DNA of 64,000 nucleotides from assembly GCA_964573695.1 (NCBI GenBank), contig CAZNKB010000005.1, positions 46,012 to 110,011 of the forward strand. The letters are read 5' to 3'. The notes under the pieces are model-generated. The model ran no database searches. It saw nothing but the letters and a program-made list of their open reading frames with translations, and was not told where the DNA came from. Shown here piece by piece: positions 9,927 through 47,420 of this stretch. Made by a program: the position numbers and the translations under genes. Source of the DNA: an uncultured Gammaproteobacteria bacterium (GTDB lineage Bacteria; Patescibacteriota; Microgenomatia; UBA10105; UBA927). Every line of letters begins with the position of its first letter. The stretch's first letter is position 1.

Positions 9927-10322
9927 TTACAAAGCAATGATTTCAGGAAGCGGGGTTTCCTTCGGAACAAACCGAATCGAGAGTGAATTGACACAGTGCC
10001 GCGTGTTTTTGGGCGTATACCGTTCACCGGTAAAAACGTGCCCCAGGTGTCCATCGCAGTTACTACACCTGATTTCTACCCGATGTCCGTCGGGGTCAGG
10101 GAGCCTGCGCAGCGCATCAGGAAAATTGTCATCGAATGCGGGCCAGCCACATCCGGCGTCGAATTTCGCTTGGGAAGTGAAAAGCAGAGCGTTACATCGT
10201 CTGCAAATATACGTCCCTTCTTTGACAAAATTATCATACTCGCCGCTAAAAGGAGCTTCCGTTCCCCGGTTCACTATGACATAGGATTCTTCGTCAGAGA
10301 GAGGATTATACGCGGGTTTCAT
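9927..10322 (-). CDS. msrB: Peptide methionine-(R)-S-oxide reductase MsrB
   Basis: SelR domain with CGWPAF, zinc-ligand pairs CRRC/CSNC and the catalytic RCSNCDGHLGHVF. Confidence 0.9.
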   Translation of the reverse strand: MKPAYNPLSDEESYVIVNRGTEAPFSGEYDNFVKEGTYICRRCNALLFTSQAKFDAGCGWPAFDDNFPDALRRLPDPDGHRVEIRCSNCDGHLGHVFTGERYTPKNTRHCVNSLSIRFVPKETPLPEIIAL

Positions 10323-13290: not shown

Positions 13291-14004
13291 ATGATACGAA
13301 AAGACGATGTCCTGCAGTATGCGTTTTCCGCGTTGTTTTCCCTTTTGCTTATTCTTGGTCTTTATGCCGTAGAGTCGTATACTTCCGGAGAATCAGGGCT
13401 GTCCGTATTGAATGTGAGTTTGGCGGCAGGGACACTTTTTCTCCTTGGGTTCGTTCTTCTCTTAGGGCCTCTTTCGCGAATGTTTGCCGTATTTGATTGG
13501 GCGTTTAAATATCGCAAAGAACTTGGCATCATGGCATTTATAACCGCGACTGTCCATGTGTATCTTGCCATGTTTCCGCTTGCCAGAAATGGTCCGTGGG
13601 GACTGTACCGGGCGAGGCCTTTTTCCGCCTATCCGGGACTCGAGGCGCTTATAGTGCTGCTTGTCCTTTTTCTGTTGTCTTCAAATTGGGCGACAAAGAT
13701 GTTGGGAGCCAAACTTTGGTGGCAGATACAGTATTGGGGAGCGAGACTTGCGTTTGTATTGGTTTGTGCACACGTCATTATCCTCAAGTACAAAACGATA
13801 ATGCTCTGGGTGATCCCGGGGAGCGAGACGGTAATTTCGGGTGTGTATGCGCCTCCGCTTGTCGTATGGGAGGCGCAGTTTATCCTGCTTGTATTTGTGA
13901 TCCGCCTGTCGGAACTCTTCGGTCCCAAGGCATCACGGATCATCACTCAGGTTGCCACAGCAAGCGTGCTTTCTGTCATTGTCTGGTCGACTTTTTTGCG
14001 ATAG
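13291..14004 (+). CDS. Ferric-reductase-like transmembrane domain protein (MsrQ/YedZ-like heme-b membrane protein, putative)
   Basis: Six TM helices with His in helices 3 and 5 (TATVHVYLAMFP, LVCAHVIIL), as in FRD/MsrQ bis-heme sites. Confidence 0.45.
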   Translation: MIRKDDVLQYAFSALFSLLLILGLYAVESYTSGESGLSVLNVSLAAGTLFLLGFVLLLGPLSRMFAVFDWAFKYRKELGIMAFITATVHVYLAMFPLARNGPWGLYRARPFSAYPGLEALIVLLVLFLLSSNWATKMLGAKLWWQIQYWGARLAFVLVCAHVIILKYKTIMLWVIPGSETVISGVYAPPLVVWEAQFILLVFVIRLSELFGPKASRIITQVATASVLSVIVWSTFLR

Positions 14005-14046
14005 GGAGTATCTGGCGGGGTAGAACATCCTTGCATTCTGGTTTCG

Positions 14047-14337
14047 GTGGTGTATGATAGCTATATGTTGGATCACATGATCCGTCATCATAAGTTATTC
14101 TTCGTTTACCTCATTCTTTTCTTTTTCGTCGGGGCTGTCGATATATTTAACCTCGACCGGCTGACCTACAAAGCAGTATGCGATATGGTATCTCCCGTGT
14201 CCGGCAGTCCGTGCCCGCCGTTTTATGACATCCCGATCTGGAACGTGTATCTTTCGCTTGCCGTGCTTGCGGGACTATATCATGTCCATGACGAGATTCG
14301 CACGTCAAACAAACATCTGTCCTCGCATAAGCACTGA
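14047..14337 (+). CDS. Hypothetical small membrane protein
   Basis: Two predicted TM helices and His-rich termini. Confidence 0.3.
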   Translation: MVYDSYMLDHMIRHHKLFFVYLILFFFVGAVDIFNLDRLTYKAVCDMVSPVSGSPCPPFYDIPIWNVYLSLAVLAGLYHVHDEIRTSNKHLSSHKH

Positions 14338-14345
14338 TTATTCCT

Positions 14346-14861
14346 ATGGAAGAAAAACCTCTGGGTAGTGTCACCAAGAAGAAAGTCGGTTGCGGACCGG
14401 CAATTATTTTCGGCATTATCCTGGTACTTTTGATAGGTGTCGGATCCAATGAAGCACTTGGGCATTATATGTCCGAATGTCGCGATGCAGAAGATATCAT
14501 GGATTGTATGCTTGATTGGTCAGAGGAGCCGGTACCGGAAGGATCCGCGACAGCCACAGGAACATATACGTATCAGGATTACAGCGTTACCCTTGTTTTA
14601 CATATTCCCCTCGAAGGGGGAGCAGTTACCGGTACGATTTCGGGAGCGTGCGACGGCACGGCGAAGGGTACGTATAACGGACAAGACAACGGGGCGATTA
14701 CCGGAACAATCTCTGGCGCATGTGACCCGTTTTTTGTGAAGGTACCGGCGAGCGCGACGTATAACGGGGTGGTAAACAAAGGTACGAAAGCCGTTCCTAT
14801 TAGTTTTACCGGCCAGGGAGCTGGGGTTACCCACGACGGCTCCATGTCTCTCTCATACTAA
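14346..14861 (+). CDS. Hypothetical membrane-anchored protein with an internal tandem repeat
   Basis: N-terminal TM segment. Duplicated segment GAVTGTISGACDGTAKGTYNGQDNGAITGTISGACDPF. Confidence 0.4.
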   Translation: MEEKPLGSVTKKKVGCGPAIIFGIILVLLIGVGSNEALGHYMSECRDAEDIMDCMLDWSEEPVPEGSATATGTYTYQDYSVTLVLHIPLEGGAVTGTISGACDGTAKGTYNGQDNGAITGTISGACDPFFVKVPASATYNGVVNKGTKAVPISFTGQGAGVTHDGSMSLSY

Positions 14862-14887
14862 CCCCTTCACACCTCCGATGTGTGAAG

Positions 14888-15121
14888 CTAGACTCCCTTG
14901 ATTTCTAACCGTTTGTTTTTCGATTTATGGCCGGAAAGGAGGGTGACGGCATTTTTCTTTATCCCGAAGTGTAAAGCAAGCGCTTCTATCACCGCTTGAT
15001 TAGCTCGGTCTTCTAATGGCGGCGCGTTCACGTACACATGCAGCATGCCGGTCAGGTCTTCTTCTATCCTCGGGCGTTTGTTATTTGGGTGCGTGATGAC
15101 GGAGATAGTCATTTCATCCAC
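14888..15121 (-). CDS. DUF167/YggU-like small protein
   Basis: 77 aa with the pattern V.V.A.P..G.AN.A..E.LA..FG..K..V.LL.G..S..K...I. It overlaps the RuBisCO 3' end by 13 nt. Confidence 0.55.
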   Translation of the reverse strand: MDEMTISVITHPNNKRPRIEEDLTGMLHVYVNAPPLEDRANQAVIEALALHFGIKKNAVTLLSGHKSKNKRLEIKGV

Positions 15122-16368
15122 TTTTCCAGTGCGCGCTTGAGTTCAGGACTGTCTTTGGCTTCCGCAAGCGGAATTCCTGTGAGCGTTGCTTTGAGTGACT
15201 GGACGATCGCGCGTGCTCCCGCCGGGGTGCCGTCCGGATGACCGTGGATGCCGCCGCCGAAATTCATAAGCAGGTCTTTGCCCAGGATAGCCACAAGATC
15301 GGGAATATGCCCCGGGTGCAGTCCGCCGGAGGCGGTGGGGAGCGTCGTTTTGAGTCCGTACCATTCGCTTCTTAGGAAATCGTTGATTGCGACTACTTCC
15401 TCTTTGCCGCCTTCCATTTTGCCGACGACCGTTCCCGTGTGGAACGAGTCGATGCCCGCAAGTCTCGCGAGTTTCGCAATCACGAGCATGGAAATGCCGT
15501 ACTGGCGGGAGCGGGTAAATGCAGCGTGCATTGCCCGATGCCCATGGATCATGAGTCCATAATTCCGGTTGCGTATGCCTTGGGTTGCTGCAAATCCAGC
15601 GGTGAGTACATCGATCATCAGGCAGTTGGCGCCACTATCCCGCACATAATTTGCGCGTTTCATCATTTCTTCGTAGCTTGCCGTGATATTGAATGCATGT
15701 ACTTTGGCGTTACCGATTTCGAGATAGTTTTTTTCCTTCATGCGGCTGGTAACTTCGTCTACGCGTGTGTAAAAATTATCAAATGTCATGTTGGCAAGAT
15801 TCTCGTCGTCTTTCACCAGATTTACGCCGTTGTCCCATACTTCCATACATGCCTGTGCGTGGCGGACACTGGTAAGTCCCAATTTGGGTTTGATAATGGA
15901 GCCGGTGAGCGGACCGTCTTTGACTCCCGTAAGGTTACGTATGCCCTCGATGCCCAAAGCAGGGCCAGGAAACGCCTTGACAAACACTTCCGGAAATTCC
16001 AGGTCTTCGAGCCGGAGCCCCACGATTTCCTTTAGCCCGAATACATTGCCCGTTATGGAAGAGAGAAGCTGCGGAATACTTCCTGCCTCAAATAAGTCCA
16101 GTGGGTAGGCGATAGTAATCGAGCCGGATGTTTCGTCCATGGCAATTACCTTGGCATGAAGTTTGTCCCATATCTTTTTTTCCTCAAGTCCTATGTCCGT
16201 CCATGTGCCGACAGAGGATTCTGCAGCCACTCCGCCTGCTGTTTTGTCAAACGGCTCGCCCTCGACCTTGAGTGTAAAGGTAGCGATGATGTGTTTCGTC
16301 TTATCGACAGGCTCGTTAAGGGCGAGATAATGGATATACCGATTTGCCATAGTGCAGATATCTATCAT
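15109..16368 (-). CDS. rbcL: Ribulose-1,5-bisphosphate carboxylase large subunit, form II/III-like
   Basis: Motifs IIKPKLGL (carbamylated Lys), VKDDENL, GGGIHGHPDG and the catalytic loop residues. The start is uncertain: MIDICT at 16368 or MANRYI at 16350. Confidence 0.95.
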   Translation of the reverse strand: MIDICTMANRYIHYLALNEPVDKTKHIIATFTLKVEGEPFDKTAGGVAAESSVGTWTDIGLEEKKIWDKLHAKVIAMDETSGSITIAYPLDLFEAGSIPQLLSSITGNVFGLKEIVGLRLEDLEFPEVFVKAFPGPALGIEGIRNLTGVKDGPLTGSIIKPKLGLTSVRHAQACMEVWDNGVNLVKDDENLANMTFDNFYTRVDEVTSRMKEKNYLEIGNAKVHAFNITASYEEMMKRANYVRDSGANCLMIDVLTAGFAATQGIRNRNYGLMIHGHRAMHAAFTRSRQYGISMLVIAKLARLAGIDSFHTGTVVGKMEGGKEEVVAINDFLRSEWYGLKTTLPTASGGLHPGHIPDLVAILGKDLLMNFGGGIHGHPDGTPAGARAIVQSLKATLTGIPLAEAKDSPELKRALEKWMK

Positions 16369-17251
16369 ACCCCGTATCGAATATAAAAGGGTAGTGTTTG
16401 TTTGCGGCTTTTTTGATCTGTTTGCCCGTTAAGATTCCGGCTTCACAGATCACGCGGACATTACTCATGTAAGGCACATAATCGAAAGCAGGTGAATAAA
16501 ATTTAAGTGTTGTCGGCGCTGCTTCCCAAATTTCCTCAGAGCTTCTTGTTTCGATCATCGTAGGAGAAAATGGTGCAGGGTCATACTTGAGGAGCGTCGT
16601 GAGCACGTATACGGGGATATGTTTGCGTTTGGCAGCAGCCGTGACGGCAAGTGAGCCGATTTTGTTTACAAATCCCTTGTCATTTATAAGGTCCGCTCCG
16701 ATAAATACGGCATCTATTTTACCGACACGTCCCTCTATGAGAGAAACAGCCACGTCATCCACAGTCATGATGACGTCGTCAAAGCCGGCAGCCAAAAGTT
16801 CCGAAGCGGTGACTCTTCCTTGGAATCGCGGCCGGGTTTCGGCAACGTACAGAGAGAAATACGCACCCCGTTTTCGCGCGGCTTCAAACAGACGCACCGT
16901 GGTCGAGGAGTGGCAGAGAGTAAGATACACGCCGCCGTCGACTAAGAGTGGCACACCTACTTGCGGGATCGATAGTTTCCCTTTTTCTATATATATTTTG
17001 TATTCGGCGATACGTTTTTTGGCGTCCGCTGTGCATCCGCTGCTCACATACCGGACGGCGTTTTGCGCGAGCGGTTCCGTGGGACGGGCATAGGCCAGTG
17101 CCTCGCCAAGCCTCGTAAGTTCATAGCACGAAATTTCCGGCTGATCTTTGATCGCTTGACTGAGCGCGTCTAGGACGGCGATTGCGACATTGGTCGCTCC
17201 CTGTATCTTGAGGCTTTTGATGTCGGCAAGTATCTGGTCTTGGGGCAGCAT
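16316..17251 (-). CDS. Ribose-1,5-bisphosphate isomerase (eIF-2B alpha/beta/delta-like, e2b2)
   Basis: eIF2B-family fold pattern (GADLI..G.VNKIGS, KIDAVFIGAD). Sits directly upstream of, and overlaps, the RuBisCO gene, the classic AMP-salvage arrangement. Confidence 0.85.
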   Translation of the reverse strand: MLPQDQILADIKSLKIQGATNVAIAVLDALSQAIKDQPEISCYELTRLGEALAYARPTEPLAQNAVRYVSSGCTADAKKRIAEYKIYIEKGKLSIPQVGVPLLVDGGVYLTLCHSSTTVRLFEAARKRGAYFSLYVAETRPRFQGRVTASELLAAGFDDVIMTVDDVAVSLIEGRVGKIDAVFIGADLINDKGFVNKIGSLAVTAAAKRKHIPVYVLTTLLKYDPAPFSPTMIETRSSEEIWEAAPTTLKFYSPAFDYVPYMSNVRVICEAGILTGKQIKKAANKHYPFIFDTGYDRYLHYGKSVYPLSRP

Positions 17252-17334
17252 AGGGTTGCAACGTTATTGTAGACCGAAAAAATCTTCGGGGCAATCAGCG
17301 GTAGAATATTATTGGCGTCTGTGTAATGGGCGTC

Positions 17335-17649
17335 TTATTCTCCTGGAAATTTGAGGACGCCAGTAATAAATAAATCAATGCTGTGAAGCAACTGAAGCTG
17401 TGTTTCTCTTTGCCCCTTGAGTGGATCTCTTTTTCTATTATCCTGTCGCAGCTTTTGGATTTGTCTTTGATCCATTGACAGAACAGTTGTCACAATTTCT
17501 TCGAATTCGGATCTTGAATGACCCCATTGGCTTGCCCATGCTATTTTTGCTGGGGTCAGGAAGTGTGTCTGAAGGCGATCACGGTTAGCGTGAATAAAGC
17601 TAAGTTCGTCGTCTACGCTAATTCGTCGTGGTCTGTGGGACTCATTCAT
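17335..17649 (-). CDS. Hypothetical protein at the left end of the island
   Basis: 104-aa ORF of intermediate GC. No domain recognised. Confidence 0.35.
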   Translation of the reverse strand: MNESHRPRRISVDDELSFIHANRDRLQTHFLTPAKIAWASQWGHSRSEFEEIVTTVLSMDQRQIQKLRQDNRKRDPLKGQRETQLQLLHSIDLFITGVLKFPGE

Positions 17650-17920
17650 TTCACGATAATTATAGCATTAAGGGGTATTTGGACAATTGTTCCACCCATA
17701 CTTGGGGTGTGGATACGTTTAACACATGATACAATCTTGGAATGAATTTAAAAATCGGGATGCCACGACTTCTACTCGACATAACAGCCTCCCGTTTGAT
17801 TTGAAAATTAGACTACCTCCTCCCTGTAAGTCGAGAATTATTAATCAACGATTAGGTAATGGGCGAATAGTTAGCGCTGTGGTTCTTGAAGGTGAGCATT
17901 TATCCATTTCTGATTTTTAA

Positions 17921-18204
17921 TCAGTGCTTAGCAGGATTATAGGGATTAGATTGAGAAGGGTTAATTGCTTTCTTAGTTTGAATGTCGAATTGTAATCTTG
18001 TTGTTGTCTGATTTGAGATACTAGCGTTAGTACTCCCTTTAATTAATCCAACAACCTGAACACCGCCATCAACTCCTAGATTTTCATTAGCTATTACAGC
18101 TACATCAAATGAATTGTTCCTCTAACGCCAATAACTGAAGGCGACTCTGTTACCGCTTCATCTAAGTCTTTTACAGGTTCCTTAATGAAATTTTTTAGTT
18201 TCAT
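17921..18204 (-). pseudogene. Possible frameshifted small gene remnant
   Basis: ATG at 18204 gives 33 codons to a stop. An adjacent frame then continues for about 60 more codons to a TGA at 17921. Very AT-rich intergenic context. Confidence 0.2.
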
Positions 18205-18268
18205 TTTAGCCTATTAGAATAGTCTAAATGCAATAGTTGACGGTCTGTGAGATAATCTAAATAGGTAT

Positions 18269-18733
18269 ATGAGTAAATCACAACAATTATTATACTATAT
18301 CATTAAACAGAAACGCGTTGTTGAGGATAAGACTAAATTAGCAAAGATACAATATTTTGTTGATTTTATTCATTATGCCTTTCATAGCAATCCGGTATCT
18401 GACGAATCATTAGTTTACACTCGCCAAAAACAGGGTCCTTTGGCAAGGACTTTCGGTCAAGATATAGAGATGTTAAAAGATGCCGGATTTATTAAAGAGA
18501 GTCCGAAATATAATTATCAGGTGGCAAAAGACATTGATACCGATTTGACACCAGAAGAAAAAAAGACCGTTAAATTTGTTCTGAATAAATATGGTCAACT
18601 ATCATATAAGGAACTGATGGATATTTGTCATAATCAGGAACCATATTTATCTACACAGGATGGAGGTATAATTGAATATTTTACGGCATATAACCTCGTA
18701 GATTCATATCCCGATTATGCAGCCGCAAGTTAA
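18269..18733 (+). CDS. Panacea-domain (SocA/DUF4065-like) putative antitoxin
   Basis: KLAKIQYFVDFIHYAFHSNPVSDESLVYTRQKQGPLARTF matches the Panacea pattern (KLQKLLYY...G.pl.......W..GPV). Overlaps the next ORF by 17 nt. Confidence 0.5.
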   Translation: MSKSQQLLYYIIKQKRVVEDKTKLAKIQYFVDFIHYAFHSNPVSDESLVYTRQKQGPLARTFGQDIEMLKDAGFIKESPKYNYQVAKDIDTDLTPEEKKTVKFVLNKYGQLSYKELMDICHNQEPYLSTQDGGIIEYFTAYNLVDSYPDYAAAS

Positions 18734-19148
18734 TGTATGCCCCCGTTTTTGGAGAGATATAAAGGATTTGTATAAACATACAAAATTTCGCTACCTTCAA
18801 ACCACGCTTAATTTAGAACAGTTTGAGAGTTCAGATGATGAGATCAAGCTAAATTCAATACCTTATGTACATGCAATTTCGAATACAATTATTAATAAAT
18901 TGCCTGATAATCTTGATGATATTTCAGATCAATATGATCGTCAACATTTGTTACACCACGGTTGGGTAATTCGAAAAATGAGATACGCTCTTAATAATAA
19001 GGGAAAAAGTGATGGAGTCAGAATAATATTCTGCGTGAATAGTATACATATAATATACGTATATATTAATCAAAAAAATTTATGCGCGGATGAACGAAAG
19101 ATGGAAGCTGAATTCATGTCGAGAATTAATTCGTACCTCAATATTTAG
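18717..19148 (+). CDS. Putative RelE/ParE/HigB-like toxin with an N-terminal extension
   Basis: C-terminal HHGWVIRKMRYALNNKGKSDGVRIIFCVNSIHIIYVYI resembles an mRNA-interferase core (RiiY...v.il.I). Co-oriented with, and overlapping, the Panacea gene. Confidence 0.4.
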   Translation: MQPQVNVCPRFWRDIKDLYKHTKFRYLQTTLNLEQFESSDDEIKLNSIPYVHAISNTIINKLPDNLDDISDQYDRQHLLHHGWVIRKMRYALNNKGKSDGVRIIFCVNSIHIIYVYINQKNLCADERKMEAEFMSRINSYLNI

Positions 19149-19182
19149 TTGTTAATAGACTTCAAGAGTTATAATACCCCTT

Positions 19183-19995
19183 ATGCCTATCATTATTGCT
19201 ATAGTTGCTTACGCAATTTTATTCATCAGTGGCACTGCAGTCTCATACAACCTACCAAAACCCACTCCTGCTCCAACACTAATTTCATCACCTACAACAA
19301 TACAGCTACCGGTGACTCCCATCCACACAATAGCAGATCGTAAACTAAACAAAGTATTAAAAGTTATAGACGGTGACACAGTCAATGTTGAAATTGGGGG
19401 AAAAAGCCAGACAATACGGCTTATTGGTATAGATTCTCCCGAAACTGTTGATCCTAGAAAACCTGTGCAGTGCTTTGGTAAAGAAGCTTCAAATAAAGCA
19501 AAAGAGTTACTTACTGAGAAAAGTGTAAATCTTGAAGCTGATCCAACTCAGGGAGATAAAGACAAGTATGATCGGTTACTTCGATATATTTATTTAGAAA
19601 ATGGGATGAGTGTAAACAAATACATGATTAGTGAAGGGTATGCTCACGAATACACCTATCAAAATAATCCGTATAAATATCAGGCTGAATATATCAGAGC
19701 TGAACAATCGGCAAGAGAGGGTAAGAAAGGTTTATGGGCGGACAATGCGTGTCTCACACCCACGCCTACGATAAAACCTGCATCAGTGCAGATAATTTCT
19801 ACGATCAATCCTACTGTCGCAACGTATGTTCAGCCTGTGACGCAGCCAAATACAGGTAGTTATTCATGTAACTGTAGTAGAAACTGTGATGCAATAGCTT
19901 CTTGTGAAGAGGCATATTTTCAACTTAACCAATGTGGATGTTCAAAAAGAGATGGTGATAGCGATGGAGTGCCTTGTGAAAGTATTTGTAATTAA
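19183..19995 (+). CDS. Membrane-anchored secreted thermonuclease (SNase-like) with a C-terminal Excalibur calcium-binding domain
   Basis: N-terminal TM segment and Pro/Thr linker. SNase core (VIDGDTV...IRLIGIDSPE...RLLRYIY...GYA). Excalibur motif DGDSDGVPCE in a Cys-rich tail. Confidence 0.8.
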   Translation: MPIIIAIVAYAILFISGTAVSYNLPKPTPAPTLISSPTTIQLPVTPIHTIADRKLNKVLKVIDGDTVNVEIGGKSQTIRLIGIDSPETVDPRKPVQCFGKEASNKAKELLTEKSVNLEADPTQGDKDKYDRLLRYIYLENGMSVNKYMISEGYAHEYTYQNNPYKYQAEYIRAEQSAREGKKGLWADNACLTPTPTIKPASVQIISTINPTVATYVQPVTQPNTGSYSCNCSRNCDAIASCEEAYFQLNQCGCSKRDGDSDGVPCESICN

Positions 19996-20201
19996 GTGAA
20001 TAGATCCGCAAGCGTTACGCCCAATGCGTGAGCGATTTTATATGCAGTTTTAATTGAGATATTTCTTCCATTCTCAATATCCCAGAAATACGCTCTATGT
20101 AGCCCTGCTTTCTCAGCTAATTCTTCCTGAGTAATTCCTTTTTGGCGACGTAATTTCTCAATTTTCTCTCCAAATTTACGGTAAAGTGGATCGTAGTTCA
20201 T
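19992..20201 (-). CDS. XRE-family helix-turn-helix transcriptional regulator
   Basis: 69 aa with LRRQKGITQEELAEKAGLHRAYFWDIENGRNISIKTAYKIAHALGV. Confidence 0.85.
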   Translation of the reverse strand: MNYDPLYRKFGEKIEKLRRQKGITQEELAEKAGLHRAYFWDIENGRNISIKTAYKIAHALGVTLADLFT

Positions 20202-20305
20202 AGCTACATATCAGAGTAGCTACTTACCAGACATTTCTTTACCAGATATATCTAGCTTTTTTTATGGTTTGGGTTATACTTACGGTTAGTATAAAGATTT
20301 ATAAT

Positions 20306-21394
20306 ATGAAACGAAAAAGTGATAACAAATCTAAACCTTCAAACTCACGTATTTCAATTTGGGTAATTATAACTTGCATAATATTAGCAAGCATGTTAAT
20401 TGGAAAGTATTTATTCGATCAGATTCAACTTATTAGTCTTAATCGATCATTTCTACGGGCAACAAGTCTAATTACCTCCAGAAATTTCAAAGACCTATAT
20501 GATGAATTTGAGCCCACTACTGCTGCAGTAAAGATAAGTGAAGAAAAATATATTGCAAATTACGAACGCATGCAAATTCCGGCGAAAATTGAACGAATAA
20601 TTCATAAAACTTATTTAGCAGGAGACAACGGGGGTTATATTGACGCAACCTCCATTATATGTCTAATCGATACATGTCCTCCAAAATATAGATTTGAGAT
20701 ACGAAAAACATATATCATGCGAAAAATAAATAACAAGTGGAAATATTTAGGAGAAAATAACAGCCTAATTGCAACATGTGAAAGAAACAAACCCTTTATT
20801 ATTCCAACTGAATTCAGAAACAGTATTGATCTAATTGTTGAAAGATTAAATTCATCTAATACTGATTACAATGAAGTAAATTCACTCAACAAGACGAAAG
20901 CAAATGAAATTTTAAAATTTATAAACTGCCTTGATATTCAATATGCGGAAACTGATTCTTTGATAGATAACTCGGAGGGTGTATTTAACCTCATAGCTAA
21001 TCCATTTAATCAACGTTACTTAATAGAAGTTTCGCCAAGATATAAAAATTCGGACACATTAATAACATCGCTATTACTCAGGCATGAAATCGAGCACGCA
21101 CTGTCATTCTATAATTTTATGTCTGGAATGAATTTAGATAAGGCATATACAGAAGATAATTGTTATGGTGATGAAGCAAAAGCATTCTTATCTGGAATTC
21201 TATTTTTTGGTGCACTTAAAAATGAAGAAAGGAGCTGGTTAAAGTCAAAATATAATTCTTCTATTGAAATACAAGGATTTTTTGATACTTATAACGCCAT
21301 AAATGGTTATCCGGGCGAACATGTTGAAGATCAGGTGCTAAATTTTGTACGTAGTCAACCCGTTTATCAAGAGCAATGCATGGGTCGAAATTGA
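20306..21394 (+). CDS. Hypothetical membrane-anchored protein with an HExxH motif (possible metallopeptidase)
   Basis: N-terminal TM segment. LLLRHEIEHALSF zinc-binding-like motif. Divergent from the XRE gene. Start taken at MKRKSD (20306); the ORF track starts at 20264. Confidence 0.45.
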   Translation: MKRKSDNKSKPSNSRISIWVIITCIILASMLIGKYLFDQIQLISLNRSFLRATSLITSRNFKDLYDEFEPTTAAVKISEEKYIANYERMQIPAKIERIIHKTYLAGDNGGYIDATSIICLIDTCPPKYRFEIRKTYIMRKINNKWKYLGENNSLIATCERNKPFIIPTEFRNSIDLIVERLNSSNTDYNEVNSLNKTKANEILKFINCLDIQYAETDSLIDNSEGVFNLIANPFNQRYLIEVSPRYKNSDTLITSLLLRHEIEHALSFYNFMSGMNLDKAYTEDNCYGDEAKAFLSGILFFGALKNEERSWLKSKYNSSIEIQGFFDTYNAINGYPGEHVEDQVLNFVRSQPVYQEQCMGRN

Positions 21395-21527
21395 TCATTA
21401 GTATAACTTGAAGCAAGTATAACCCCTTCTTCAAATATTAGCTACATATAGGGGTATAGGTATATATATTCCGGTAGCACTTACCCCTAAAGTTATAGAA
21501 CCTGTCTGAAGTCGGTAAAATATAGGT

Positions 21528-21968
21528 ATGGATAGCCAACTATATACTCAAGATGTGAATCTCCGTCAACGAATGTTCCTACAATCCTACTTAGAGTCGG
21601 GAAATGCTACTAAAGCATATATGGAAGCATATAAAGTGTCTGAAAAACATCGTGCTACAGCCTCTGTATTGGCTTCTAGGCTTGTTAGAAAGGTTAAGGA
21701 TTCGTTCATACTTCTTCTTGAAAAAAATGGTTTAGATGACAAGGCTGTAATTGACGTATTAAAGGGTGCTTTGAGGGCGAATAGACAACAAGTCTATCAT
21801 AGTAAAGTGTACGAATTTCCAGATTATTATGCTCGTATGAAAGCAATAGAATTGTTGGCAAAACTAACAGGTCGCACATCGAAAGAGGATATATCAATGA
21901 ATCAAATGAATATACAGATTATTTCTGATAAAGAAAAGGGTGTATTTAAAATAATTTCAGATGACTAA
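21528..21968 (+). CDS. Phage terminase small subunit (Terminase_2-like)
   Basis: RQRMFLQSYLESGNATKAYMEAYKVSEKHRATASVLASRLVRK, an HTH-type TerS N-terminus. No large terminase or structural genes are nearby. Confidence 0.5.
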   Translation: MDSQLYTQDVNLRQRMFLQSYLESGNATKAYMEAYKVSEKHRATASVLASRLVRKVKDSFILLLEKNGLDDKAVIDVLKGALRANRQQVYHSKVYEFPDYYARMKAIELLAKLTGRTSKEDISMNQMNIQIISDKEKGVFKIISDD

Positions 21969-22010
21969 ATTTTGAATTAGAGCGCTATAATAGTATTTGT
22001 AAGCAAGGAG

Positions 22011-22409
22011 ATGAATATGAAAATGGATAAGCCACGACACTTTGTTGAGTTGATGGAAAAAATGGTTAAGAGAGATGAGGTTTTGCGATTAGGAGAAATT
22101 ACACAGAAGCGAATCAAGCACGTTTTGAAAAAGAAGACGTTTATATCATCGTTAATAAGTAAATTTCCTAAAAAGCAGAAGAAATTGCTATTGTCACTGG
22201 CTGACGGACATTCGAAAGATCGTAAGGAGCTAATGCGATTGGTAGGTACAACGAATCTAAAGAGTCTTGTGAGAGATACACGGCTGACAATTAAGAAGTT
22301 TGGTTATCGTCAATTATTAATTATCAAAGTAACGAAGGGGACAGGTTCGCTCCCAAAGTATTACTATTCATTAATAGCCACAATGGTAGCGCCTACCTCT
22401 GATAAGTAG
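22011..22409 (+). CDS. Hypothetical basic protein (island)
   Basis: 132-aa ORF. No domain recognised. Confidence 0.35.
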   Translation: MNMKMDKPRHFVELMEKMVKRDEVLRLGEITQKRIKHVLKKKTFISSLISKFPKKQKKLLLSLADGHSKDRKELMRLVGTTNLKSLVRDTRLTIKKFGYRQLLIIKVTKGTGSLPKYYYSLIATMVAPTSDK

Positions 22410-22569
22410 TCATAAATTTTATCAGCTTCAAAAACGCACCTCTAGTAACCAAATAACGCACTAGCAAAATAATTGACTCCAAAGTTTGCCTCAAAAACGC
22501 ACCGGTCTTTTTTGCTGGACTGAACGTTTGCGTTGTTAAATAGCTCTATAGATAAACAGAGATATTGAC

Positions 22570-22821
22570 ATGCATATGGACACACTACCAGTAAAGGATT
22601 TATCTTTAGCCTCATATTTAAGTGTTTGTGCTGATATTAGGCTACTAAGAACTGAAAGGAATAGCTCAGGGAGTGTAATTTTCCATTTTTCCCCATTAGA
22701 ACGATCCCAGCAATTAGTTTCGGATTATTGGTCCGATAAAGCTCCGTCAATCCAACCTAGAAGGCTTTTGAGTGCCTTGCGTGATCTTAAGGAGCTAATT
22801 TTTTCCGGAGGGAATTTATGA
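22570..22821 (+). CDS. Small phage-associated protein (DUF5659-like, tentative)
   Basis: Pattern DLSLASYLSVCADIRLLRTERNSSGSVIFHFSPLE...LKELI resembles DUF5659 proteins. Confidence 0.35.
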   Translation: MHMDTLPVKDLSLASYLSVCADIRLLRTERNSSGSVIFHFSPLERSQQLVSDYWSDKAPSIQPRRLLSALRDLKELIFSGGNL

Positions 22822-22974
22822 AAACTCCTGACGGTTTGAAAGTTAGGAAGCTGCTTTCGGTTAAATATGCGTTTGTCGATTACGAACAATTAGACCGTCA
22901 GAAGAGGCTAGACGACGCATTTGATGTGATATTTGATGAGATAGAAATTGATGATACAGAGCGTATCAACAATA

Positions 22975-23550
22975 AATATGAATATGAACAGCGCGCGTTT
23001 ATCAAAAGATGATGTAATCCGGCGGATTGAACAACTTGGAGGCACGTATGATCCTGAATCCGCACTACCACTAGAAGATCAGCTCATGATCTGTGAATCC
23101 CTAGTTCAATCAACGCCTGTAGACCCTAATGATGAAGATGGGAAAATCATACTAAAGTTAAAAGAAGAAGAGAACAAACGAAATGGTAGTGTTAATGGGA
23201 GTGTTAATGGTATAGGAAAACGACAAGAAAACGTAGACGAAACGAATAAGAAAAAACAAGCAATCATTGAATTAACGACATTTAATTACCGGACAAGCCC
23301 AAAGAAAATTGCATTACAACTTCAAATAGTGTTTTCAATGTATCCGAGCAAGGAGGGTCATTGGTTATATATTGCTCAGCACTATACCCCCAAATCCATT
23401 AATTGTGTTATTCATCAAATGACTAAAACGCACGTTGAAGGATGGCAAACGATAAAAAATCCTTCAAGCTACTTTACAGACGTGTTGAAGCAATATCATC
23501 CAATGAGGAAACATAAAAGAAGTGTGAGCAGGACTATTGACAAAATATGA
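22975..23550 (+). CDS. Hypothetical protein (island)
   Basis: ORF of about 190 aa with a GSVNGSVNG repeat. The start is uncertain (22948 or 22975). Confidence 0.35.
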   Translation, partial: NMNMNSARLSKDDVIRRIEQLGGTYDPESALPLEDQLMICESLVQSTPVDPNDEDGKIILKLKEEENKRNGSVNGSVNGIGKRQENVDETNKKKQAIIELTTFNYRTSPKKIALQLQIVFSMYPSKEGHWLYIAQHYTPKSINCVIHQMTKTHVEGWQTIKNPSSYFTDVLKQYHPMRKHKRSVSRTIDKI

Positions 23551-23571
23551 ATATGGGTATACTATGGACAT

Positions 23572-23994
23572 ATGAATAATATGACTAACTATATGACAAT
23601 TCAACAGGTTGCGAATGAACTTGGTGTTTCTACTAAAACTTTACGTAGATGGGATGAAAAGAAGCTTCTTATACCCGAAAGACAGGGTACTACAAATATA
23701 AGGTTATATCATACTTGGCTAGTGGGATATTGGAAGAAATATCTTGAGCTGGATAGAGCATTAAAAGCACATTTGGCTTTATTAGGGGAAGTTCGTAGAG
23801 AGCTGGAAAAATATATAGTTACGAAACCGTTGGGCACTGGACCAACAAAGATGTTTGACAGTAAAGCATTTATTGAAGCACATAAGGCAATGGAAACATG
23901 GGAAAAGGGTTTTGATCGCTTATGGCGAGAGTTAGCAGATTATCCTCCATTTATGCATCAAGCTAGGGGTAATTCTGAAGGAGAAGATCTATGA
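23572..23994 (+). CDS. MerR-family HTH protein (excisionase/recombination-directionality-factor candidate)
   Basis: MTIQQVANELGVSTKTLRRWDEKKLLIPER. Its stop overlaps the serine recombinase start (ATGA). Confidence 0.65.
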   Translation: MNNMTNYMTIQQVANELGVSTKTLRRWDEKKLLIPERQGTTNIRLYHTWLVGYWKKYLELDRALKAHLALLGEVRRELEKYIVTKPLGTGPTKMFDSKAFIEAHKAMETWEKGFDRLWRELADYPPFMHQARGNSEGEDL

Positions 23995-25604
23995 GGATAG
24001 CTCTCTATGCTCGTGTTTCGTCACAGCGTCAAGAAGTTGAAGAAACGATAGAAACTCAAATAATGGCAATTAAAGATTTCCTGAAGGTCAATAACCACGC
24101 TTTAGTACAAGAGTACAGGGATGATGGGTGGAGTGGCACAATTTTAGCCCGTCCCGCACTTGATCAGCTTCGCTTAGATGCTACAAAAAAGCTTTGGGAA
24201 GCAGTAGTGGTGTATGATCCTGATCGACTTTCTCGTAAGTACGCACATCAAGAACTTATACGTGATGAACTAGAAGGTCGTGGGATAAAAGTATTATTTG
24301 TTACAACTCCACCCGTGAGAGATGAAGGGGATAGGTTGTTATATGGAGTAAAAGGACTATTTGCCGAGTACGAACGGTCTAAGATTGCAGAACGATTTAG
24401 GTTAGGGAAGATTCGAAAGGCACGAGAGGGGCACGTAGTGACCTCACAAGCCCCGTATGGATATGCATATATACCAAAACAGGGTGAAATGCATGGATAT
24501 TTTGAACCAATATCAGAAGAAGCTCGAGTTGTACGAGACATCTTCGATTGGGTAGGTAATAAAGGGTTGACTATTCGAAAGGTTATAAAGAAATTACAGG
24601 AACAAAATATATCGCCTCGTAAAAGCAGGCGTGGAGTGTGGAATAATAGTACACTCACGACACTTCTTCGAAATGAAACGTATTACGGAAAAGCGCATTA
24701 CAACAAGACAATCGGAATAATTCCGACTAAACCTAAGAATACAGAGAAATATAAACGGATTGTTAAAAGTAGTAGGAAAAATAAGCCGGAATCAGATTGG
24801 ATATATATTGAGTGTAAACAGATTATTGAGAGAGAATTGTTCGATAGAGTACAAAAGCAGTTAAGGATAAATTTTGAACGGTGTGTTCGTAATAAAAAGA
24901 ATGAGTATTTGCTCGGTAATATTATCCGGTGTACGTGTGGGGCAACAAGAACAGGGGAAGGACCACAGCGTGGGAAGCACCTTTATTATCGTTGTTCGGG
25001 TAGGGTGAATCGGTATCCCATGCCCCCATCTTGTTTAGAAAAGGGTATAAATGCTCGAATAGCTGATGCGATGGTTTGGGATAGCGTGAAACGCCTTATG
25101 GTATCCCCGCAGTTACTTAGGAGACAGGTCGCTCGATATTTTGATCGTAAATCACAAGCTGTCGATCATTCTCTGGATATCGCATCGATACAGCAGGATA
25201 TATCGAAGTTAGATATTGAAGAAGAACGGTATACGAAAGCATATGGCAAGCAGGTCATTACGTTAGCTCAATTAACTTCGTATATTCAGGATATCCGGCT
25301 GAAACGTACGACACTAGAACAGAAACTAACCGAATATTCAAAAGAACAACGGCTTTTACCATTTGCCAAGCCCACGGATAAACAGATAGAATCATTCTGT
25401 CAAAAGGCAAAAGAGAAATTAGAATCTTGTGGCTACGAGCAGAAGAGACGAATAGTATTAAATGTTATAAACAATATCGTTGCAAGTGAAAAAGAGGTGC
25501 AAGTTTTCGGATTTCTACCGATAACTGAAGCTAATTATGTCAAGTTCTGGTCTGAAAGTCGGTATCGTAGGGCTACCCAACGCAGGCAAAAGCACGTTAT
25601 TTAA
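23991..25604 (+). CDS. Large serine recombinase/integrase
   Basis: Resolvase catalytic domain (MRIALYARVSSQRQ, nucleophile Ser), recombinase domain and a Cys-rich zinc-ribbon (CTCGATR...RCSGR). The 3' end overlaps ychF by 68 nt. Confidence 0.95.
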   Translation: MRIALYARVSSQRQEVEETIETQIMAIKDFLKVNNHALVQEYRDDGWSGTILARPALDQLRLDATKKLWEAVVVYDPDRLSRKYAHQELIRDELEGRGIKVLFVTTPPVRDEGDRLLYGVKGLFAEYERSKIAERFRLGKIRKAREGHVVTSQAPYGYAYIPKQGEMHGYFEPISEEARVVRDIFDWVGNKGLTIRKVIKKLQEQNISPRKSRRGVWNNSTLTTLLRNETYYGKAHYNKTIGIIPTKPKNTEKYKRIVKSSRKNKPESDWIYIECKQIIERELFDRVQKQLRINFERCVRNKKNEYLLGNIIRCTCGATRTGEGPQRGKHLYYRCSGRVNRYPMPPSCLEKGINARIADAMVWDSVKRLMVSPQLLRRQVARYFDRKSQAVDHSLDIASIQQDISKLDIEEERYTKAYGKQVITLAQLTSYIQDIRLKRTTLEQKLTEYSKEQRLLPFAKPTDKQIESFCQKAKEKLESCGYEQKRRIVLNVINNIVASEKEVQVFGFLPITEANYVKFWSESRYRRATQRRQKHVI

Positions 25605-26622
25605 CGCACTGCTCAAAAAGCAGGTAGCGTTTGCCGCGAATTACCCGTTTGCCACGATTGAACCCAACATCGGCGTGGTTCCTGTGCCGGATGACCGGCT
25701 GTTGAAGCTTGCAGAAATCACCAAAGCGGAAGATCACCTGGACGCATTACCGCCGCTCCGGCCTGCGACCGTCGAATTTGTGGATATTGCCGGACTTGTA
25801 AAGGGTGCGAGCGTTGGAGAAGGACTGGGGAATAAATTTTTGGCGCACATCCGCGAAGTTAATATTATCTGCCATGTGCTCCGGTTTTTTCCGGATTCCA
25901 ACATCGTCCACACCGAAGGAACTATCGATGCCGGCCGTGATCGTGAAATCGTTGAAACCGAGCTCATCCTTGCTGATTTGCAAACCCTCAACAAACAACT
26001 AGAACCCAAGATGAATGCGACCAAAGAGGATCGGCAGCGGTATGACCTGGTAGGGAAGCTAAAGTCTGCCATGAACGAGGGCAAACGCGCACTCGAGATT
26101 CTTACCGATCCGGAGGATCTTAATCTTATCCGGCCGCTTCAGCTATTGACGACCAAGCCGATCGTTTATGTTGCAAACGTTTCGGAGTCCCAACTAGGAA
26201 ACCCGCCACAGACGGACCTTAGCCCTATCGTGCGTATTTGTGCCCAAACCGAATCGGAACTCGCTGCCATGACTCCGGACGAACAGAAAGACTATCTAGC
26301 GTCACTGGGGGTTACATCATCGGGATTGGATCTGTTGATCCGTACAGCCTATCAGACGCTGGGTCTTATTTCGTTTTTGACGACGGGGGAGCTTGAGAGC
26401 CGCGCATGGACAATAGAAAAAGGTATGAAGGCACCACAAGCTTCCGGCGTGATCCATACGGACTTTGAAAAGAAGTTTATCAAAGCGGATGTGGTGGCCT
26501 TTGAAGATTTCGTTTCTTTGGGTGGTTGGAAAAAGTCCAGAGAAGCTGGAAAAGCCAGAAGTGAGGGAAAAGAATATGAAATGCAGGACGGTGACGTGGT
26601 AGAGTTTAAAATAGGCGCCTAA
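25537..26622 (+). CDS. ychF: Ribosome-binding ATPase YchF
   Basis: G1 motif GIVGLPNAGKSTLFNAL, then the YchF coiled-coil insert and TGS domain. Confidence 0.95.
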   Translation: MSSSGLKVGIVGLPNAGKSTLFNALLKKQVAFAANYPFATIEPNIGVVPVPDDRLLKLAEITKAEDHLDALPPLRPATVEFVDIAGLVKGASVGEGLGNKFLAHIREVNIICHVLRFFPDSNIVHTEGTIDAGRDREIVETELILADLQTLNKQLEPKMNATKEDRQRYDLVGKLKSAMNEGKRALEILTDPEDLNLIRPLQLLTTKPIVYVANVSESQLGNPPQTDLSPIVRICAQTESELAAMTPDEQKDYLASLGVTSSGLDLLIRTAYQTLGLISFLTTGELESRAWTIEKGMKAPQASGVIHTDFEKKFIKADVVAFEDFVSLGGWKKSREAGKARSEGKEYEMQDGDVVEFKIGA

Positions 26623-45674: not shown

Positions 45675-47420
45675 ATGTCTCATTCGCTTTCCCTCATAAC
45701 CACCTTTCTTATGCTTCTTGCAGCCGCTCTCGCGGGAGGATCTTTGGCGGTTCGCCTGAGACTTCCTTCGATTGTAGGTTATATTGCAGGAGGAATTCTC
45801 ATCGGGAATGTATTCTCAAAAGTTTTTGACCACCAGCTCATCTCAATCATCGCGGAGGCGGGTGTGACGCTTTTGCTGTTTACGCTAGGGGTGGAATTTT
45901 CGTTCCACCGGCTTAAGCGAATTCTTCACGCTATCGCCTGGCCGGCAATTGCCCAAATGGTCATAACACTTCTCGTTGTGCTTTTGTCTCTTATAGCGCT
46001 TAAGATGTCATTTATCCCTGCATTGTTTCTCTCCTGCGCCGCGGCTCTTTCCTCAACGGCTATTGTGGTTAAGTTGCTCTCCGAGCGGGGAGAACTCGAT
46101 TCTGTTCCGGGAGAGTTGGCTACGGGTTGGCTTGTCGTACAGGATTTGGCTGTGGTGCCTATTCTTATCCTGCTCTCGGCTGTTGCCGGTGTGAGTGCGG
46201 GGTCAGGCTCTGTTATCCCCGTTATGGGTACGATTGTTGTCGCTATGCTCAAAGCCGGCGTGCTCATTCTGCTCGTGTTGTACTTGGGGAGCAAGGGGGT
46301 ACCGGCACTCTTAAGTACTGTTGCGGGATTTCGGAATCGTGAATTTTTCTTGTTGACTACGATTGGTATCGTGTTTTTTGTTGGATTACTTACCTATGCC
46401 GCCGGACTGTCTGTTTCTTTGGGGGCATTTTTGGCCGGCTTATTGGTGGCGGAATCCAGTCAGAATCATGCAGTATTTTCGGAAATACGGCCGCTTCGGG
46501 ATTTGTTTGCCGTTGTGTTTTTTGTCTCACTTGGTTTGTCTTTGCCTATAAGCACACTAATTGAGTCGTTTCCTGCAATCCTTGTTATGACTCTTTCCGT
46601 GGTGTTTATCAAAGGGGGTAGTATTTTCGGATTACTTCGGTTTTTGGGATATCATCGGAAAACAGCTTTTTTGGTCGGGATGTATCTTATACAGATAAGT
46701 GAATTCGGGTTTGTCATCGCAGGCACTGGGATAGCTTTGGGAGCGCTTTCAGAAAACCAATCCGCCATGCTTGTCGCAGTGACGTTTATCACAATTTTAT
46801 TGTCCAGCCCGCTTATTAGTCGTGCACATGAGGTGTATTATTCGGTTCATTCGTTTATGAAACGGTTTCCTAAGTTGTTTCCGGAGTCGACTGTTTTAGA
46901 TATATCAGGGCCGCAAAATGAAGGCAAAACCTCGGACGGGTATCCAATCCGTGACCACGTAGTTATTTGCGGATATGGCAGAGTCGGCAAATACATAGGG
47001 CGGGCGCTTGAGATGAGCAGCATTCCATTTCTTGTCATTGATTATAACCAGCACACGCTCTCCGGTCTTCGGGGAGCAGGGATTCAAACGGTGTATGGTG
47101 ATCCCGCTGATAAGGAGGTGCTGGATTTTGCACAGGTTGACTATGCGAAGTCGCTTATTATCGCCATTCCCGACAGGCACACGCAGGAAATGGTCATTGG
47201 CAATGCGCTTTCCCTCAATAGAAGAATAAAAATTATTTGCCGCACTCACCACGAAGAAGATCAGCGTCGGCTCAAATCACTTGGAGTGCAAACGCTTGTG
47301 CAACCCGAGTTTGAAGCAGCGCTTACTATCGTCACAAAATTATTAACTGATTTCGATATCCCGGCCGAGGAAATTGCCGGTCGCATGAGCCGGCTCAAAA
47401 TTGAACACGGAATAGGGTAA
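45675..47420 (+). CDS. CPA2 cation:proton antiporter with a C-terminal RCK/TrkA-N domain (KefC-like)
   Basis: About 12 TM helices followed by a Rossmann motif ICGYGRVG. Confidence 0.85.
   Translation: MSHSLSLITTFLMLLAAALAGGSLAVRLRLPSIVGYIAGGILIGNVFSKVFDHQLISIIAEAGVTLLLFTLGVEFSFHRLKRILHAIAWPAIAQMVITLLVVLLSLIALKMSFIPALFLSCAAALSSTAIVVKLLSERGELDSVPGELATGWLVVQDLAVVPILILLSAVAGVSAGSGSVIPVMGTIVVAMLKAGVLILLVLYLGSKGVPALLSTVAGFRNREFFLLTTIGIVFFVGLLTYAAGLSVSLGAFLAGLLVAESSQNHAVFSEIRPLRDLFAVVFFVSLGLSLPISTLIESFPAILVMTLSVVFIKGGSIFGLLRFLGYHRKTAFLVGMYLIQISEFGFVIAGTGIALGALSENQSAMLVAVTFITILLSSPLISRAHEVYYSVHSFMKRFPKLFPESTVLDISGPQNEGKTSDGYPIRDHVVICGYGRVGKYIGRALEMSSIPFLVIDYNQHTLSGLRGAGIQTVYGDPADKEVLDFAQVDYAKSLIIAIPDRHTQEMVIGNALSLNRRIKIICRTHHEEDQRRLKSLGVQTLVQPEFEAALTIVTKLLTDFDIPAEEIAGRMSRLKIEHGIG

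Follow-up and report, generated by a model that had tools for sequence, protein, structure and literature searches.

The 64-kb window examined here (64,000 nucleotides, positions 46,012 to 110,011 of contig CAZNKB010000005.1; "the window" refers to this whole stretch) carries, at approximately 17,759-25,562, what is very probably a mobile, excisable integrative element, inserted into the gene ychF by a large serine recombinase (LSR) and belonging to a family found across the candidate phyla radiation (CPR). The segment is a discrete, horizontally acquired and intact LSR element of an ultra-small CPR (Patescibacteria) bacterium, and it is almost certainly mobile. A first-pass annotation of the same DNA had marked an AT-rich segment at 17300-25604 as a candidate satellite resembling the phage-inducible chromosomal islands (PICIs). 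The drop in GC content was confirmed (36.5% for the element vs 48.6% for the remaining window), but the ends were not, and an empty site in a related genome placed them at 17759 and 25562, to within about 3 nt, for a length of 7.8 kb (plus strand). GC fractions in 500-nt windows were 0.31-0.43 from 17.5 to 25.5 kb, with flanks of ~0.49 before and ~0.50 after, and all other 2-kb bins of the window fell between 0.44 and 0.52. Three features went beyond the first-pass annotation: the element is inserted inside ychF and rebuilds its 5' end, the integrase gene int spans the attachment site attP, and the element is one of a CPR-wide family with ychF as its target.

Related genomes were searched for an unoccupied site, a check that had been proposed together with the satellite reading. 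Species-representative genomes were scanned with YchF and a single close relative was recovered (L011, a Patescibacteria metagenome-assembled genome whose YchF is 87% identical). L011:9564-10014 aligned to window 17305-17761, and L011:10004-11071 aligned to window 25555-26622. As the homologues of these two window segments abut in L011, the L011 site is empty and the ends of the element are defined. A 104-aa open reading frame (ORF) at 17335-17649 (minus strand) is a host gene, 79% identical in L011, and lies outside the element. The junctions were solved from the empty site because direct and inverted repeats between both element ends were uninformative, consisting of chance 10-mers only. There is no tRNA near the insertion point.

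Three-way alignment of the empty site, attL and attR located the insertion inside codons 5-7 of ychF. By this alignment attB is ATGAATTTAAAAATAGGCAT|CGTCGGGCTTCCC, attL is ATGAATTTAAAAATCGGGAT|GCCACGACTTCTACTCGAC and attR is TATGTCAAGTTCTGGTCTGAAAGTCGGTAT|CGTAGGGCTACCC; the predicted junctions are ...GAAAGTCGG|GATGCCACGAC... for attP and ...AAAAATCGG|TATCGTAGGG... for attB. The core reads TCGG-N-AT, the sequence common to the att sites is merely GG-N-AT, and crossover probably occurs at the GG of a glycine codon. Dyad symmetry centred on G|G was observed at 13-17 of 30 positions in the attP reconstructed for four sites and at 15 of 30 in the real attP of a circular relative (L137), against a background of 7.7 +/- 2.5 of 30; attB sites scored 5-10 of 30. 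Short att sites, a minimal common core and a dyad-symmetric attP, by which serine integrases are recognized, are all present.

At the left end, integration has stranded the native 5' end of ychF (17730-17761, plus strand), which comprises a -10-like TACAAT box at 17730-17735, the old ATG at 17742, the first five codons (residues MNLKIG) and the core GGGAT at 17757-17761. The same stranded-start structure was found at the junctions of four relatives (L006, L010, L092 and L097). At the right end, attR (25516-25565, plus strand) consists of the P arm and the core GGTAT (25561-25565) and encodes both the C-terminus of the integrase and a new ychF start, with an ATG at 25537 opening the residues MSSSGLKVG in frame with the P-loop. 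The resulting chimeric ychF (25537-26622, plus strand) owes its first 8 codons to the element and the remainder to the host, and matches YchF-GTPase_C and MMR_HSR1; the native start was compared in L011. Read from the sequence, the right end of the element restores an intact P-loop GTPase reading frame of ychF. The TACAAT box of the native gene lies 6 nt 5' of the ATG (window 17730-17744; L011:~9985-10003), a spacing that suggests a leaderless native ychF mRNA. In the integrated state the native promoter faces the P' arm, and ychF must be expressed from within int or by read-through; expression of the integrated gene would come from the element side.

The integrase, Int, is encoded at 23991-25604 (plus strand) and has 537 aa in the integrated state. 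As the first-pass annotation had stated, it is an LSR preceded by a MerR-type putative excisionase. The three LSR domains were identified (Resolvase PF00239, 100.9 bits; Recombinase PF07508, 70.6 bits; Zn_ribbon_recom PF13408, 26.7 bits), together with a match to phrog_95 (3.5e-93), and the R8-V9-S10 motif, including the catalytic Ser10, was nearly invariant in 37 homologs. The MerR/excisionase-type helix-turn-helix (HTH) protein is encoded at 23572-23994 (plus strand; MerR, 40.7 bits; TIGR01764 excise, weak), its stop codon overlaps the start of int (ATGA), and a MerR or HTH_17 gene always lies directly 5' of int in the relatives. Coupled to int in this way, the protein may serve as an excision factor and is a putative recombination directionality factor (RDF). 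Recombination between attP and attB by Int, and RDF-dependent recombination between attL and attR, are predicted, by indirect evidence, from the empty site, the occupied sites and the circular attP form of relatives.

The int ORF and ychF overlap by 68 nt, such that the final 13 residues of Int are ychF read in another frame, an overlap shared by all close relatives. When the reading frame of the excised form was reconstructed, the P' arm of attP (17762-17920, plus strand) was found to encode a 53-aa C-terminal tail of Int (DATTSTRHNSLPFDLKIRLPPP...), for a predicted excised-state protein of 577 aa. As int spans attP, integration exchanges a conserved tail of ~53 aa for 13 host-encoded residues. 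The tails of the top 120 Int homologs displayed the same pattern of ychF overlap or attP tail, and the motif RH..(I/L)PF.(F/L).(I/V)..P.P was kept even in integrases 48% identical to the window Int. At the nucleotide level, window 17725-17844 was 77-82% identical to the left junctions of L006 and L010. The P' arm had a low rate of synonymous substitution (dS 0.5-0.85) and a ratio of nonsynonymous to synonymous substitution (dN/dS) of ~0.45; these values indicate that constraint on the att site at the DNA level contributes to P' conservation.

A circular form was identified in a relative. The contig L137:1-7419 (Ga0315284_10031572), a longer version of L091, has an exact 105-bp terminal repeat and is therefore a circular assembly of 7,314 bp. 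This circle was found in two independent datasets at 99.9% identity. Its Int, 80% identical to the window Int, has 567 aa and ends ITVSTRHSSLPFELKIKLPPP... across the P-P' junction; several of its ORFs were read by us as membrane or Cys-rich proteins, and it has no gene for a small terminase subunit (TerS). A tandem arrangement was seen in L097:1-8252, where the contig opens with attL (the promoter and start of host ychF, continuing into P') and int runs on into another, diverged P'; two different elements therefore seem to be arrayed at ychF. After this observation the P-P' junction alone was rejected as proof of excision and the terminal repeat of L137 was used instead.

More than 2,300 Int homologs were recovered at E <= 1e-20. 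The best 120 were >= 48% identical and, where a source was named, came almost entirely from Microgenomates and Parcubacteria, with one labelled Omnitrophota. All close relatives examined (L006, L007-L009, L010, L092, L095, L135 and L136) lie directly upstream of ychF-S6-SSB-S18 with the same overlap. Using an integrase profile we collected 80 metagenome loci with integrases 47-82% identical to the window Int; int overlapped ychF in 51, met the contig edge in 10 and had an attP-type tail in 19, giving same-site occupancy in 51 of the 70 informative loci. An occupied site was present in none of 80 ychF loci among the species-representative genomes. Searches of IMG/VR and of cultured phages (INPHARED) returned integrases <= 37% identical only, with no close relative, and no description of these ychF elements was found by full-text literature searching.

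Both ends could be mapped in four elements, of 5.4 kb (L092), 6.8 kb (L010), 7.8 kb (window) and 8.8 kb (L006), and all relatives checked were AT-rich relative to their hosts. They share a backbone of a DUF5659 protein, a ~60-aa protein, a gene in the replication position, the MerR/HTH_17 gene and Int, in an order conserved across the full range of integrase identity (47-83%). The replication position holds one of several variants: a ~190-aa protein, as in the window; a 442-aa protein with, by our reading, a Walker-A-like GAPSSGKT motif and no family match (L010 and 6 other loci); an HTH_36 protein (L096); or a ~795-aa protein that we read as primase-helicase-like from its Prim-Pol-like and P-loop motifs (L147 and 7 other loci). 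Left-arm cargo includes a 1,347-aa STAND-like NTPase in L095, an ABC-3C-like domain in L092, and GIY-YIG, DUF1828/9 and DUF6978 in L006. Host DNA flanking the element is 87-90% identical between the window and L006, and the elements mostly cannot be aligned, matching just at the staphylococcal-type nuclease (SNase) gene, the ~190-aa gene and int; cargo turnover therefore outpaces host divergence. Integrases with attP-type tails were also observed on long contigs (up to 689 kb; L162, L182, L194, L093 and L094) where neither ychF nor another int lies within 10 kb; some of them adjoin type I restriction-modification and RES-Xre genes, and these copies may be plasmids, large tandem partners or insertions at other sites. 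L093 and L094, contigs of 35-58 kb with distant attP-type integrases, were set aside as uninformative, having restriction-modification neighbours and no phage genes. Empty, occupied, tandem and circular states are all available for the family and form a natural comparison set.

The backbone of the window copy lies to the right of its regulator and cargo. A 132-aa protein (22011-22409, plus strand; 63% identical in L095, no family match) is followed by two conserved non-coding blocks, GCCTCAAAAACGCACCGGTCTTTTTTGC and GTTGTTAAATAGCTCTATA (22488-22550), upstream of the backbone operon that opens with the DUF5659 gene. The blocks at 22488-22515 and 22532-22550 are identical in L095 despite saturated synonymous sites, and a half-copy is found at 22425-22440; they are a candidate promoter, operator, origin or pac site. 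Scans for iterons, tandem repeats, promoters and terminators revealed nothing else beyond background. The DUF5659 protein (22570-22821, plus strand; PF18903, 28.9 bits) occurs in 13 family loci, and the 64-aa protein (22818-23012, plus strand) has homologs in L006, L010, L091 and L095, with a p73-like protein in further loci.

Next in order is a ~190-aa all-alpha protein (22978-23550, plus strand), 53-73% identical in 8 relatives and with 174 family representatives. Its C-terminal domain is fused to Prim-Pol and PriCT_1 in P0180 and P0255, and we infer that the protein is replication-associated. The model of this protein (pLDDT 85.7) had no fold match in the PDB, the PDB sequence profile search was also empty, and a scan of viral contigs with the family alignment gave no usable outcome, the alignment being too divergent. 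No primase or helicase is recognizable in the window copy; the ~190-aa protein and the conserved non-coding block may together form a reduced replication module. The XRE regulator of the first-pass annotation was borne out by a match to HTH_3 (59.7 bits). This XRE/Cro-type HTH gene (19992-20201, minus strand; 87% identical in L095) is divergent from the rightward gene set that ends in int, and its product is a candidate master repressor of the rightward operon. Between the window and L095, dN/dS was 0.05 for XRE, 0.08 for TerS, 0.07 for DUF5659 and 0.11 for the ~190-aa protein; between the window and L006 it was 0.05 for Int. dS was saturated in both comparisons. These ratios show that purifying selection acts on the backbone genes, TerS among them.

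All ORFs were annotated with Pfam, PHROGs, NCBIfam and PADLOC, and large terminase subunit (TerL) genes were sought by phmmer. No element ORF matched a capsid, portal, tail, lysis or TerL protein, in agreement with the earlier statement that capsid, portal, tail and large terminase genes are missing. The TerS-like gene noted at the same time survived the Pfam, PHROG and PDB profile tests. TerS (21528-21968, plus strand) belongs to the Terminase_2 family (36.8 bits, cut-off 26.1) and matches phrog_51 (6e-13, residues 10-129). When the window TerS was combined with its relatives in a profile, residues 9-131 matched the SF6 small terminase (3zqp/3zqq; 2.7e-7), so that the HTH and the oligomerisation core are both covered. 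The AlphaFold 2 model of TerS was poor (pLDDT 59.6) and its Foldseek matches were meaningless.

In all viral TerS relatives examined (29-37% identical), TerL directly follows; the evidence for TerL is Terminase_3C and phrog_2 on viral contig L002, 4zni (2e-21) on L216 and 2wbn (2e-15) on L215. TerL was absent from the window, L095, L096 and L010 by phmmer, and as none adjoins it the window TerS is called an orphan. Close homologs were rare, with six among 5.8 billion proteins, all on small contigs. Two further small LSR elements have a TerS 77% identical to that of the window: L095, with the same backbone and at ychF, and L096, with an unrelated LSR. In L096:5217-8158 this TerS is accompanied by an HTH_36 protein and an LSR undetected by phmmer with the window Int (E <= 1e-4), which suggests that the TerS module may move between element lineages. 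The window TerS is therefore an orphan module that is conserved and mobile, a hallmark of PICIs.

The leading explanation for how the element spreads is a PICI-like satellite, in which infection by or induction of a helper CPR phage would relieve XRE repression, the element would excise and replicate, and TerS would steer the helper TerL to package it into helper capsids. We consider this plausible, at somewhat under an even chance. The orphan TerS is full-length and under purifying selection, it recurs in the two small LSR elements just described, and its viral relatives always adjoin TerL. An XRE gene divergent from a rightward operon is reminiscent of the stl/str layout, structural genes are absent, the cargo is of defence type, and many relatives have primase-helicase-like genes. 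TerL also occurs next to int in relatives. In L147:3294-11605 (JADMIO010787495.1), a genuine TerL gene (T4 gp17, 1e-8, plus nuclease-domain matches) was observed directly upstream of an RDF-like gene and int, at ychF. A 166-aa ORF occupies the TerS position and a 795-aa primase-helicase-like gene lies 5' of TerL; host ProRS limits the interval to <= 9.4 kb, and it has no capsid genes. An attL was searched for at the left end of L147 and not found, and the copy could therefore be a remnant; L147 represents a satellite with both TerS and TerL, or else what deletion has left of a CPR phage that integrates at ychF. Homologous TerLs flank int at ychF in L146 and L149.

Several results weigh against this account and against mobility of the window copy. 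TerS was found in only 5 of ~90 family loci, one of the 5 being a 61-aa HTH fragment, and it is missing from the circular relative. The search for a helper phage, which had been suggested along with the satellite reading, returned neither a helper nor a close phage TerS; the closest viral TerS is 37% identical and none is close among the cultured phages of INPHARED. IMG/VR holds no close relative of the integrase. A primase is missing from the window copy, no pac or cos site was recognized in it, and at 7.8 kb it would require concatemeric or small-capsid packaging. As to excision, the circle comes from a relative with an 80% identical Int and no TerS, and a P-P' junction can also come from tandem arrays such as that of L097.

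We compared the element with known satellites. Like PICIs (e.g. SaPIs), it is a small site-specific island with an integrase, a divergent candidate HTH repressor and putatively replication-linked genes, with a Terminase_2-family TerS, no TerL or structural genes, and cargo of defence or toxin type. It differs in that PICIs use a tyrosine integrase and are ~10-15 kb, whereas here a serine integrase lies at the far end of the rightward operon of a 7.8-kb element. The window copy also has no primase/helicase, no capsid-remodelling or phage-interference genes were recognized in it, and TerS is not family-wide. The PICMI of Vibrio and P4-like satellites are similar in size (~5-11 kb), in having a core of int, regulator and replication genes, in lacking structural genes and in their variable defence cargo. 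However, they differ from the element in att site, class of integrase and backbone genes, and no sequence relationship to them is known. The first-pass assignment thus holds for the combination of integrase, regulator and TerS without virion genes, but the element cannot be filed as a PICI, because its replication module is incomplete, its integrase class and reversed layout differ, and helper dependence is hypothetical. For the sub-clade with TerS, hijacking of a helper TerL and capsid through the orphan TerS is tentatively our leading candidate for transfer. With rather more doubt, we suggest that the 5-9 kb ychF-homing, ychF-restoring family may represent the first recognized satellites or satellite-like episomes of CPR/Patescibacteria, in which loss of the Int tail would act as a directionality or stability switch and sub-clades with TerS or TerS+TerL (L147) would steal CPR-phage capsids.

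Alternatively, the element may be a phage-independent integrative episome or mobilizable element, a plasmid-like circle spread by transformation, FtsK-type translocation or vesicles, with the TerS-like protein as a DNA-binding accessory. We rate this as nearly as likely as the satellite. The universal backbone (DUF5659, 64-aa protein, replication-linked gene, RDF and Int) excludes TerS, the 7.3-kb circle has no packaging gene, and the elements are missing from viral contig collections. A TerS-like gene in L010:4281-6271 (35% identical) also argues against packaging by a helper: it lies ~0.55 kb upstream of a 317-aa FtsK/SpoIIIE motor (182 bits) in the 6.8-kb element, with one small opposite-strand ORF between them, a pairing that may point to another route of DNA translocation in part of the family. 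However, the homology of TerS to a packaging protein is full-length, extending beyond the HTH, and strongly conserved, and the relatives with TerL connect this family with phage packaging. None of the loci examined contained a relaxase, an oriT or conjugation genes.

The first-pass annotation had offered a decayed prophage, an immobile remnant after loss of structural genes, as its own alternative, and this we now regard as very improbable. L147, with TerL beside int and no detectable attL, would fit such a history, as would a frameshifted ORF at 17920-18204 in the window. Against it, both att sites of the window element are intact, as are int, the RDF gene and TerS (dN/dS <= 0.11), left and right ends were mapped for four independent elements (5.4-8.8 kb), a circular form of the same size exists, and the order of the backbone is kept across integrases of 47-83% identity. 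A minimal virus (non-tailed, membrane-associated or filamentous), with small membrane proteins as virion parts, is equally hard to credit: a 5-9 kb genome with a circular form and integration, relatives' ORFs that we read as having hydrophobic N-termini or many Cys, and the FtsK-superfamily ATPase of L010 would suit it, but family searches found no homolog of coat, Zot-like or rolling-circle Rep proteins, the membrane proteins belong to the variable cargo rather than the backbone, and the 376-aa protein of the window has a protease-like HExxH motif.

Elements that insert within genes are known from other bacteria. SPbeta in spsM, skin in sigK and Listeria A118 in comK are LSR elements inside genes that remain inactive until excision. 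The ychF element resembles them in its LSR, its short site inside a coding sequence and its expected dependence on an RDF for excision; it differs in that their target is split, whereas here the element brings a replacement 5' end and leaves ychF intact. The lambdoid phage 21 and e14, complete or defective E. coli prophages, use tyrosine integrases at icd and substitute the 3' end of the gene. They likewise keep the target functional with an element-borne gene end, but it is the 3' end there and the 5' end here. In Myxococcus phage Mx8 (intP/attP) and in the integration-dependent immunity of mycobacteriophages, attP lies within a phage gene whose C-terminus is altered by integration. Those integrases are tyrosine recombinases, and in mycobacteriophages it is the repressor that is affected, whereas in the present family the tail of an LSR is swapped for alternate-frame ychF, family-wide. 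In a defective pneumococcal prophage, int lies immediately upstream of ychF and can control ychF expression, with attB listed between a DUF951 gene and ychF (PMC8637289, Table 4). This prophage, whose host is a Firmicute, is a loose analogue.

To our knowledge, few mobile elements have been described from CPR bacteria, and the locus opens onto a large family with an att site precisely defined in a highly conserved gene. As integration both repairs the target gene and rewrites the C-terminus of the integrase, the system bears on LSR directionality and expression control. The compact serine integrases, with predictable 40-50-bp sites, are candidate tools for organisms without a genetic system. 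Should the sub-clades with TerS and TerL prove to be satellites, parasitism by phage satellites would reach as far as ultra-small bacteria that live as episymbionts.

The left arm would be cargo, made up of a Panacea toxin-antitoxin pair, a secreted nuclease and an HExxH membrane protein. At its outer end, the frameshifted ORF (17920-18204, minus strand; 34 aa plus ~60 aa in another frame by three-frame translation, no Pfam match) is probably a decayed cargo gene and is the sole sign of decay in the element. A Trypco2-like identity considered for this ORF was unsupported by Pfam. The toxin-antitoxin module of the first-pass annotation was confirmed for the antitoxin, a Panacea-domain (SocA-like) protein (18269-18733, plus strand; PF13274, 47.8 bits; phrog_1281), but its partner has a weak RelE-like match (17.7 bits, below the cut-off; phrog_5869, 8e-5). 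This 143-aa putative toxin (18717-19148, plus strand) is so named from its position, with a 17-nt overlap with the antitoxin gene. The SNase (19183-19995, plus strand) is secreted or membrane-anchored and carries an Excalibur Ca-binding domain (PF00565, 95.6 bits; PF05901); it matches PADLOC C3a212 SNc+LTD at 1.5e-45, and the L006 copy is 69% identical. The last cargo gene encodes a membrane-anchored Cys-rich protein of 376 aa (20264-21394, plus strand) with no family match and 2 homologs only. In the protein and its homologs 6 Cys and the HExxH motif (H274-E275-x-x-H278) are invariant, and all have a hydrophobic N-terminal segment that we take for a membrane anchor; the protein is a putative secreted metallopeptidase. 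It is the sole large unassigned ORF and is taken as cargo rather than a capsid protein.

An Rfam scan of 17-26 kb identified no RNA family. The independent assembly L001 (Logan SRR14932511) is 100% identical to window 13814-17872 and ends 110 nt into the left end of the element, a contig break that could stem from a mixture of occupied and empty populations there. The element is flanked on the left by the genes for form II/III RuBisCO and e2b2 and on the right by ychF, S6, SSB and S18. The RuBisCO and e2b2 (IF-2B family) genes, at 15109-17251 (minus strand), overlap by 53 nt, and this pair, as expected for the nucleoside-salvage pathway of CPR/DPANN, confirms the host type.

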